Shown one piece after another: positions 1 through 2,111 of a stretch of DNA of 12,485 nucleotides (the first letter of the stretch is position 1; every line of letters begins with the position of its first letter). The DNA comes from a virus. A model generated the notes under the pieces. That model had not been told where the DNA came from. It ran no database searches and worked only from the letters and a program-made list of their open reading frames with translations. The stretch lies in the UHGV virus genome UHGV-0140160; one strand, written 5' to 3'. The position numbers were made by a program, and so were the translations under genes.

Positions 1-2111
1 GAGGGCCACGGAACAGGTACACCAACGGGCAGCGCAGAGCCTTCCCCCAAACCAAGGTAATCAAGAACTCCCTGAGTGCTGGTTTTACCAAGAATGGCAC
101 GTCCAACACTTGTCAACGCGGTTAACGCGGCACGATCTGCCCCTGTAAAATATGGGAGTTTATCTGCTGATGTAGCAAGCTCCGCCAGCGCCGTCAGGGT
201 GGCATCCTTCGATTGCTTACCCGCAAGCGCGTTAGTCATGGTAGTCGCAAAGTTCGGGTCATTGCCCAGCGCCGCAGCCAGTTCGTTCAGCGTGTTCAGT
301 GCATCAGGGGACGAATCTACAAGTGCGGCAATCGCAGCCATAACGAAAGCCGTGCTTGCGATCTGGGTATTATTAGTCCCCTGTGCCGCTGTTGGTGTTG
401 TTGGCGTTCCGGTCAGTGCCGGGCTGATTAATGGTGCTTTCTTGTTCGTTTCATCCATTACCGCCTTAACAGCTTTTGGTGTCGCTGCCAGCGTTTCAGA
501 CGTGCTGTTCGTGGCGCTACTGAGCTGAACAAGGCCTTTTCGTGCCGTAGTTGCGTCCTGTGCTGTGTATTTGCCATTAGCAAGATCATACGCTGCCTTA
601 ACTGCCTTAGGCGTTGCTGCAAGAGTTTCAGACGAGCTGTTGATGGCACTACTAAGTTGTACAATGCCGCTCTGAGTGAGGCTGGCTGCTGGTACGTCGG
701 TAATCTGGCTCCAAGGGTGGTTATGGCTGGCGTTGGCACACTCTGCAAAGCGAGCACTTAACCAGGAACTCAACCAACCGTCTCCCCACTGACTGCCATA
801 CACATCACCACCGGTGCTATAACGTGCATCCCCTATCAGAAGCTCTTTTAATGAGGTAATACTTCTTTCCGTGAAAAGGAACACACGCTGGCCGTTGGCG
901 AACACGGACAATACGCCGTCTCCTTCCTGTTTAATTCCGGTATCGTAATCGCCCAGCGTCAGAGAGTTCCCCCCCAGTCTGTTGTTGGTATTGATGCCGA
1001 ATGCAGAGGTCTGCGGCAGATTAAGTTTACCTGTCATGGTGTCGCCATCTTTGGCAACTTTTTCTCCAATCAGGCGAGTCACTGTCGCGGAAAAGTTCGG
1101 GTCATTACCAAGTGCTGCGGCAAGCTCATTCAGGGTATCAAGAGCTTCTGGTGATGAACCAACCAATGCGGATATGGCAGCTCTTACATAAGCGGTCGTA
1201 GCAATCTGCGTGTTATTCGTACCCTGTGCAGCGGTAGGCGCAGTAGGTATTCCCGTTAATGCAGGACTTGCCAAAGGCGCTTTGAGGGCCAGGGCATTGT
1301 TGATAGTTGTGCTAAAATTCGGGTCGTTATTGATCGCAGCTGCTATTTCTTTCAGCGTATCCAGTGTGCCAGGTGCACCATTGATAAGCGCATTTATAGC
1401 AGCATAGACAAAGGCCGCATTTGCGATCTGCGTGTTGTTTGTTCCGGGTTCAGGTGTTGGCGAAGTCGGCGTACCTGACAGATGCGGACTATCGAGCGGA
1501 GCTTTTGTATCAACCAAATCATGGAGAGTTTTGACAGCCAGAGGTGTAGCCGCTTTTCTTTCTTCTGTACTGCTTATTTCATTAGAGAATTCGACACCAA
1601 CAGCACGGTTAACCCGGTATTTAAGCAAAATCATTTCTTTAGTCACAGCCGTTGCGCCGCTAGGCACGATAACTCGACATAATTCAATTTGATTCTGCCC
1701 AACAGTATTGTCCGTACGCGCGTAAATTCTTGCAGCACTGACAGAAGATGCGCTATCTACCTGTGTCGTTTTTACACCATGTTCAAAATTGGCTTCCAGC
1801 ACAATAATGTTGGTAGCCCCTGCCTTTACCGAGACAGTCACATCTTCTATTTGCTGAACGGATATCTGAACATTATTCACATCTACTGAAGCAGCCCCTT
1901 TACCTTCTGAGTTTTCAGAAGTTATACGGACGTTCAACCCTGTGCCGGGAACTGGTTCAAATCCACAGTAAAAGCCAGGCAAAACAATATTTTTAAGTTT
2001 TCTGTTAAGAGCCGAACTACTATAGAGTTCGAAATATTGAACATCAGCAAGCAACGGCTGTGAGACACCAGAGGATAGCGTCATTATGCTTTTCGTTTTA
2101 TCAGCCCCCAT
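1..2111 (-). CDS. Tail fibre protein, P1 S / Mu S / P2 H / lambda Stf family; first 703 codons only, gene continues past the window start (partial)
   Basis: Minus-strand frame opens at ATG 2111-2109 (GAGGG 7 nt upstream, 2 nt after the stop of the preceding gene) and stays open to base 1. It is absent from the ORF track only because its stop lies outside the window. Hand translation starts MGADKTKSIMTLSSGVSQ and contains hallmark tail-fibre motifs: GDTMTGKLNLP; duplicated G(I/L)VQLSSA(I/T)NS(S/T)SETLAATPKAVKA; three copies of GTNNTQIA-TA(F/Y)V...LDTL(N/K)E(L/I)AAA(L/I)(G/N)NDPNF; and the constant-region signature KDATLTALAELATSADKLPYFTG...VLDYLGLGEG. Confidence 0.88.
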   Translation of the reverse strand, partial: MGADKTKSIMTLSSGVSQPLLADVQYFELYSSSALNRKLKNIVLPGFYCGFEPVPGTGLNVRITSENSEGKGAASVDVNNVQISVQQIEDVTVSVKAGATNIIVLEANFEHGVKTTQVDSASSVSAARIYARTDNTVGQNQIELCRVIVPSGATAVTKEMILLKYRVNRAVGVEFSNEISSTEERKAATPLAVKTLHDLVDTKAPLDSPHLSGTPTSPTPEPGTNNTQIANAAFVYAAINALINGAPGTLDTLKEIAAAINNDPNFSTTINNALALKAPLASPALTGIPTAPTAAQGTNNTQIATTAYVRAAISALVGSSPEALDTLNELAAALGNDPNFSATVTRLIGEKVAKDGDTMTGKLNLPQTSAFGINTNNRLGGNSLTLGDYDTGIKQEGDGVLSVFANGQRVFLFTERSITSLKELLIGDARYSTGGDVYGSQWGDGWLSSWLSARFAECANASHNHPWSQITDVPAASLTQSGIVQLSSAINSSSETLAATPKAVKAAYDLANGKYTAQDATTARKGLVQLSSATNSTSETLAATPKAVKAVMDETNKKAPLISPALTGTPTTPTAAQGTNNTQIASTAFVMAAIAALVDSSPDALNTLNELAAALGNDPNFATTMTNALAGKQSKDATLTALAELATSADKLPYFTGADRAALTALTSVGRAILGKTSTQGVLDYLGLGEGSALPVGVPVPWP
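42..67. other. Candidate Din-family (Cin/Gin/Hin-type) inversion crossover site at the constant/variable junction of the tail-fibre gene
   Basis: 26-bp sequence ttcccccaaaccaaggtaatcaagaa with the central core aaaccaaggt identical to the centre of hix/gix-type sites as I remember them (TTCTTGAAAACCAAGGTTTTTGATAA). It lies exactly where the conserved constant region ends (encodes LDYLGLGEG). Dyad symmetry of the arms is weak (6/12). Confidence 0.3.
220..1481 (-). repeat. Intragenic direct repeats of the tail-fibre gene: three ~200-bp units (about 220-416, 1058-1262, 1275-1481) and a tandem ~130-bp pair (about 470-730)
   Basis: Seen directly: near-identical DNA blocks such as gcgatctgggtattattagtcccctgtgc / gcaatctgcgtgttattcgtaccctgtgc / gcgatctgcgtgttgtttgttccgggttc, and agcgtttcagacgtgctgttcgtggcgctactgagctg / agagtttcagacgagctgttgatggcactactaagttg. 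They encode the repeated peptide modules listed for the tail-fibre CDS. Unit boundaries are approximate. Confidence 0.8.

Follow-up and report, generated by a model that had tools for sequence, protein, structure and literature searches.

A DNA-invertase crossover site at the constant/variable junction of a tail-fibre gene in a P1/D6-like plasmid prophage contig

Known tail-fibre switches and the site in gene S

Tail-fibre switches of the Cin, Gin, Pin and Min type were already known in the 1980s-1990s. In the Cin/cix systems of P1 and D6, two sites surround one 4-kb segment with S'U' and SvU; the D6 record annotates cixL and cixR, and D6-like plasmids have been described with a tail-fibre inversion region (PMC6799933). 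Prophage Phi2 of Escherichia coli EC958 is chromosomal and has two sites around a 2.07-kb segment, and both orientations of that segment are present in PacBio reads (PMC4134206). For the C-segment of pMCR_SCKP-LL83, a P1-related plasmid prophage, the authors give 99% identity to p15B min at 92% coverage (PMC5786510). We compared these systems with the UHGV virus genome UHGV-0140160, a stretch of 12,485 nt (hereafter the window). It corresponds, reverse-complemented, to an entire metagenome contig (ENA ERZ1749178, NODE_1789_length_12485_cov_4.24), the assembly of which ends at base 1, inside tail-fibre gene S. Positions 42-67 of the window very probably represent the gene-proximal crossover site of a serine-invertase tail-fibre switch (Din family, Min/Cin type) in a P1/D6-like plasmid prophage.

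Sequence, architecture and position confirmed window 42-67 as a true crossover site of the Din invertase family (Hin/Gin/Cin/Pin/Min). The plus-strand 26-mer (TTCCCCCAAACCAAGGTAATCAAGAA) scored 26.6 bits against a position weight matrix (PWM) made from eight published or annotated reference sites, with the window site left out; the runner-up in the window scored 6.3. Across 500 shuffles the best scores averaged 10.4 and peaked at 21.4, with none (0/500) reaching 26.6 bits. The full-site PWM test was used because the short motif AAACCNNGGT is not significant by itself, at least one copy being found in 62 of 200 shuffles (31%). The 10-bp centre, AAACCAAGGT (reverse complement TTCTCTTAAACCAAGGTATTGGATAA), is the same as that of P1 and D6 cixR, and the two half-sites agree at 6 of 12 positions (TTC...ACC), giving the family architecture of imperfect inverted 12-bp halves around a 2-bp core. 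A search across the whole window for a second copy of the 26-mer with up to three mismatches found none.

The fibre open reading frame (ORF) ends ...LPYFTGADRAALTALTSVGRAILGKTSTQGVLDYLGLGEGSALPVGVPVPWP, with the core inside the Leu686 codon of ..VLDYLGLGE... The core register is the same in P1 cixR (VIQYLGLRE), D6 cixR and Mu gixL (FIQNLGLQE, at the G-segment boundary), such that the junction between the constant (Sc) and variable (Sv) parts of the fibre is in frame. The P1 record M81956 likewise puts the Sc/Sv boundary at the core position; we took this boundary as 2388/2389 and disregarded the span annotated as 'cixR' (2005-2226), which repeats the coordinates of repeat b2. The original prediction, made from the window sequence alone, had proposed a 26-bp invertase-site-like sequence here, with a perfectly matching 10-bp centre and a position at the constant/variable fibre junction like those of P1 cix and Mu gix, and on each of these points it was borne out. 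The core dinucleotide (TT in all Sc and silent sites of relatives) is the inferred point of strand exchange. The constant-side half-site TTCTTGATTACC always remains joined to Sc, and the variable-side half-site GGTTTGGGGGAA moves along with each cassette (Table 1).

Similarity to described sites increased from Mu to Min-type plasmids. Mu gixL (17/26 identity) occupies the homologous ..NLGLQE.. position in S and has the same half-site architecture, but its core is TC rather than TT, so that under the core-identity requirement Mu and window-type sites would not recombine productively with each other. P1 and D6 cixR match the window site at 19/26 positions and share with it gene S, the codon register, the centre, the TT core and the neighbours R, 16, bplA, pmgA and sit. 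The EC958 Phi2 5' site matches at 21/26, and the Phi2 3' site shares the head half-site at 12/12. The Sc sites of pMCR_SCKP-LL83 and of the E. coli plasmid pKOr024_2 are closest, each at 25/26. In the min-like C-segment of pMCR_SCKP-LL83, the Sc half-site (12/12) and TT core are identical to those of the window and hold the same position in S; this plasmid has nine sites, the same Collar-type cassettes as pKOr024_2, and a recombinase identical to the pKOr024_2 enzyme at 189 of 190 residues. The pKOr024_2 enzyme matched D6 Cin at 139 of 186 aligned residues (~75%) and Mu Gin at 136 of 190 (~72%).

Judged on its sequence, the window site therefore belongs to the Min type within the Din family, the link to p15B running through the comparison made by the pMCR_SCKP-LL83 authors. 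The earlier hix/gix-like label holds at the level of the Din family, but more precisely the site belongs to the p15B Min type, not to hix or gix in particular. The window differs from p15B and pMCR_SCKP-LL83 in its backbone, which is D6-like with a Rep3 replicon and not P1/P7-like, and in holding the gene-proximal site only. For the Min multiple-inversion system of p15B, a plasmid of E. coli 15T-, six sites are described, whereas arrays in relatives of the window have 9-13.

Partner sites, recombinases and cassettes in relatives

Over the fibre end, pKOr024_2 matched best (94% identity), and the same site occurs there with one mismatch. Its Sc is fused to a 153-aa tip, with a tail-fibre assembly gene next in line. 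There are eight inverted partner sites, TTCYCCCAAACCAACG (TTCYCCCAAACC/AA/CGTTTT..), each heading a ~500-bp Tail Collar cassette encoding 143-178 aa, and a 190-aa serine recombinase adjoins the outermost site. Among other plasmids with the window's fibre end, some have a pair of sites ~1.9 kb apart and the rest have arrays of 6-13 (site counts: pKOr024_2, 9; L010, 13; L064, 9; pMCR_SCKP-LL83, 9). The recombinase lies 1.9-6.9 kb past the site in these relatives. The original prediction would have counted a lack of partner and invertase within about 5 kb of the window start as refutation, a limit that proved too tight given that multi-cassette arrays, frequent among relatives, can put the recombinase 5-7 kb away.

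Co-occurrence of the three elements was common across databases. Seven of ten PLSDB plasmids sharing the window's Sc end carry one or more inverted partners plus a serine recombinase; the other three comprise one cut by the record origin, one truncated by IS26 with a 32-aa recombinase remnant, and one with a degenerate head half-site and no partner. Among further E. coli plasmids in RefSeq, two have a partner and recombinase, and a third has partners in a record that stops before the recombinase position. In IMG/VR the exact 26-mer was present in 43 loci, 23 of which were informative (at least 2.7 kb on the variable side). An inverted partner was found in 19 of these 23, with a recombinase too in 17 of the 19. 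Scanning draft genome contigs with the 26-mer returned one 1-kb contig, fragmented at such sites.

A frameshifted second recombinase fragment was also observed beside the holin gene, facing the intact Min-type recombinase (913-1090 versus 1346-1918 in L001; also in L009, L010 and L064). The 5' ends of the frameshifted and intact genes form a 54-nt inverted repeat. This arrangement points to replacement of an older cin by an incoming Min-type module.

Across seven loci we distinguished 18 cassette types by their variable parts (118-196 aa, mostly with a Tail Collar domain). The same types occupy differing slots and orientations between plasmids, and each of types A, C, I, J, Q and R is the Sc-fused one in at least one locus. 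Type A, for example, is silent beside the recombinase in pKOr024_2 and Sc-fused in L010, while type I with its tail-fibre assembly gene (tfa) is Sc-fused in pKOr024_2 and silent and inverted in L010 and pMCR_SCKP-LL83. In its cassette order, L010 approximates a single-inversion isomer of a pKOr024_2-like array. Throughout, the Sc-side and recombinase-side half-sites stay fixed while heads swap, as is predicted by exchange at the core.

Min-type arrays with 9-13 sites span 1973-7067 in L001, 3104-10023 in L010, 4998-10014 in L064 and 8781-13706 in L056. Cassettes in these arrays are built from a conserved ~70-aa head and a conserved tail (..RPRNIAFNYIVRAA), and the stop codon of one cassette runs into the silent half-site that comes next (GGCATAAAAACG). 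Among the cassette types, only type I (153 aa, ..YRTESSGGNETRPRN..) has an overlapping downstream tail-fibre assembly gene (Caudo_TAP), an arrangement located at 5981-6592 in L001, 4123-4734 in L010 and 12160-12771 in L056. In isomers such as L010, the assembly gene is directed away from the expressed S.

Contig ends, proposed mechanism and alternative explanations

The window stops 41 nt past the 26-mer; counted from the first core base, the distance is exactly 55 nt. The same 55-nt stop recurs in two independent assemblies, one from another ENA sample (L005) and one from IMG/VR (L038, a 62.8-kb contig whose head sequence differs). By default, metaSPAdes goes up to k = 55 for short reads, and Sc-type and silent-type sites part at the base just before the core (..TTACC/TT versus ..AAACG/TT). 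A k = 55 de Bruijn unitig running from Sc ends at the first 55-mer with two predecessors, and hence the 55-mer made of core and head would have two left contexts in the reads. We infer that window 1-55 (core and cassette head) is repeated in the sample. The second context could stem from a partner site whose Collar-type head is identical, or from the same element inverted. In two-site relatives with an unrelated partner head, only ~15 nt are shared after the core, so a switch of that type would not give a 55-nt break; the contig end thus favours a Collar-type partner over the unrelated head of the two-site relatives. Exact searches of genome and viral contig collections for the window's own 55-mer (core plus head) found none. 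The corresponding 55-mer of L038 was found in a silent-cassette context in one metagenome contig from another sample, showing that a second context exists, outside the same sample.

Many further isolate and metagenome contigs with this site have an end that coincides with, or lies close to, a crossover site or cassette head (L022, L026, L030, L043, L049, L051 and L069). Switches of this kind are a systematic cause of assembly breaks and may also produce mis-joined or duplicated cassettes, an example being the linear record behind L010, which has two copies each of types D, E and J.

Given the co-occurrence of site, partner and recombinase in relatives, the natural isomers and the 55-nt contig ends, the source element would be expected, by analogy, to keep one or more partner sites and a recombinase beyond base 1 and to have an active switch. 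For the partner, an array of Collar-type cassettes is probable, similar to that of p15B Min-like regions. We suggest more tentatively, as something close to an even call, that the array is an expanded Min-type one with many more Collar-type cassettes than the classical six sites of p15B.

The biochemistry of Hin, Gin and Cin, in which a Fis-dependent enhancer lies in the 5' part of the invertase gene, provides the basis for the steps we propose; in the source element such an enhancer would fall outside the window. A recombinase dimer would bind the two imperfect 12-bp half-sites, and the site would pair with an inverted partner sharing the TT core, assisted by the Fis-bound enhancer. Both sites would be cut at the 2-bp core and, following subunit rotation, the intervening DNA would be religated in inverted orientation. 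With the core within the Leu686 codon of ..YLGL.., inversion would join the 686-codon constant part in frame to another C-terminal cassette of ~120-200 aa, most Collar-type tips having 143-178 aa. As the cassettes mostly encode Tail Collar-type receptor-binding tips, phage host range would be predicted to change.

Several observations weigh against a switch that is still working in the source element. The assembly ends at base 1, such that any partner and recombinase of this element would lie outside the window; the contig-end argument depends on k being 55; and another prophage in the community could supply the second context, given that such heads are common to many E. coli prophages. Orphan sites are also real in the window's lineage. 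Plasmid pMUB-MIN14-1 (L058) and similar plasmids, which are closest over the backbone (~92% identity) and differ from the window across the last ~210 nt of S, carry in S a perfect cixR of the P1 type (37 bits in pMUB-MIN14-1) that lacks a partner, and keep just a 24-44-aa cin remnant between tfa and the lysis genes (in L058, cixR is at 8829-8854 and the remnant at 6663-6794, a decayed switch with an orphan site). Moreover, L065 retains the Sc half-site and a recombinase with a degenerate head half-site and no partner, L060, which carries the window's Sc half-site, is truncated by IS26, and 4 of the 23 informative IMG/VR loci have neither partner nor recombinase. The window site could accordingly be a relic, truly descended from a crossover site but now coding sequence only, with the partner and/or invertase lost and the tip fixed. 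We consider this unlikely: the core and both half-sites are intact in the window, with the head half identical (12/12) to functional-type sites, a unique junction would not stop three assemblies 55 nt past the core, and elements sharing this exact Sc end are for the most part complete.

The natural isomers fit homologous exchange within the conserved cassette heads (~220 bp; 214-242 nt) equally well, and this too counts against attributing them to an invertase. Recombination between these heads (inverted repeats 80-95% identical) as the main exchange route would agree with the repeats beginning at the sites, with some heads being 100% identical inside one element, and with isomer junctions that map no finer than the heads. 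It is nonetheless highly improbable in light of the conserved serine recombinase adjoining each array, and of the conserved 26-bp site with an invariant TT core at every cassette boundary, non-coding halves included. The two-site relatives (L009 and L061-L063) share only ~15 nt, too short for this route, yet keep the site and recombinase, and site-specific inversion by Cin, Gin and Min is well documented (PMC4134206). Chance resemblance, whereby codon usage for a conserved ..YLGLGE.. peptide would mimic a site unrelated to recombination, could draw on the frequency of the short motif in shuffled sequence, but is effectively refuted by the full-site score and by the identical half-site and core that stand before untranslated silent cassettes and beside recombinase genes in dozens of loci.

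Gene context and implications for P1-like phage-plasmids

Long ORFs from base 1 to ~10,150 are all on the minus strand. They make up a P1/D6-like tail module, and the genes run in the order R-S, gp16, bplA, pmgA, sit, pmgB, rep (Table 1). The R homologue lies upstream of S in one operon. Just upstream of rep are ~4.8 tandem 21-bp iterons (TCAACGCTAGCGGGTAAATCA), with one extra copy within rep and an inverted one just past it; iterons and a Rep3 rep are a typical iteron plasmid replicon, comparable with the orf42 region of D6.

Table 1. Features of the window (12,485 nt)
Feature	Position	Strand	Remarks
Cassette start fused to Sc (GSALPVGVPVPWP..), Phage Tail Collar-type tip	1..41	-	Cassettes of relatives match Pfam Collar PF07484
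Tail-fibre gene S	3..2111	-	Start at 2111, ORF open at base 3 (contig end); 703 codons, 686 constant + 17 variable; Pfam Phage_fiber_2, E = 4.5e-43
Invertase crossover site (26 bp), Din/Min type by sequence	42..67	-	TTCTTGATTACC/TT/GGTTTGGGGGAA in S direction; PWM 26.6 bits
Variable-side half-site GGTTTGGGGGAA	42..53	-	Encodes G-L-G-E; 12/12 versus most silent-cassette heads and the EC958 Phi2 3' site
Core dinucleotide	54..55	-	TT in S direction, AA on plus strand; bases 2 and 3 of the Leu686 codon
Constant-side (Sc) half-site TTCTTGATTACC	56..67	-	12/12 identity to the Sc half-site of L001, L009, L056 and L059-L067
P1 gene R homologue (tail-fibre structure or assembly)	2114..2560	-	PF26881 Phage_P1_tail_fiber_R; synteny with D6 orf36
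gp16	2673-3515	-	Synteny with D6 annotation and pKOr024_2
bplA	3525-4955	-	Synteny with D6 annotation and pKOr024_2
pmgA	4952-5326	-	Synteny with D6 annotation and pKOr024_2
sit transglycosylase	5332-9270	-	Synteny with D6 annotation and pKOr024_2
pmgB	9325-10146	-	P1/D6-like tail module
Iterons	10330-10431, 10944-10959, 11359-11379		21-bp unit
Rep3-family initiator gene rep	10461-11354	+	Iterons just upstream

Gene S itself is a mosaic. D6 gene S matches window 1092-2200 at 97.5% identity, H genes of P2-like phages (Wphi, P88 and P2_AC1) match window 140-668 at 86-87%, and window 1-139 had megablast matches to Min-type plasmids only. Internal repeats of ~132 nt and ~238 nt correspond to Phage_fiber_2 modules. 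Another metagenome contig (L003; ENA ERZ27287602 k141_21833, 10450-13380) encodes an R protein 100% identical to that of the window, yet a P1-type fibre (..IQYLGLRELGTSGEKIPLL..), the ORF of which runs through a cix-like site for more than 500 further codons. A different fibre beside an identical R therefore indicates that the fibre end has been exchanged between otherwise near-identical elements.

The system is of an already known type, and the window adds one more gene-proximal site of an ordinary kind. The site itself raises no new biological question, and its value is mainly for annotation and assembly: it marks the end of the constant part of the fibre gene, and it explains why the window contig and similar contigs break at an exact base. 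Arrays in relatives, which lie outside the window, exceed the six-site p15B region, and the minor question they raise concerns the single tfa gene: if there is truly one assembly gene per array, how do the other tips fold, and does every isomer give infectious particles? The tip found in any single assembly of such phage-plasmids is one among several possible. For host-range prediction in P1-like phage-plasmids with resistance genes, Min-type arrays accordingly imply a switchable set of tips rather than a single receptor specificity.

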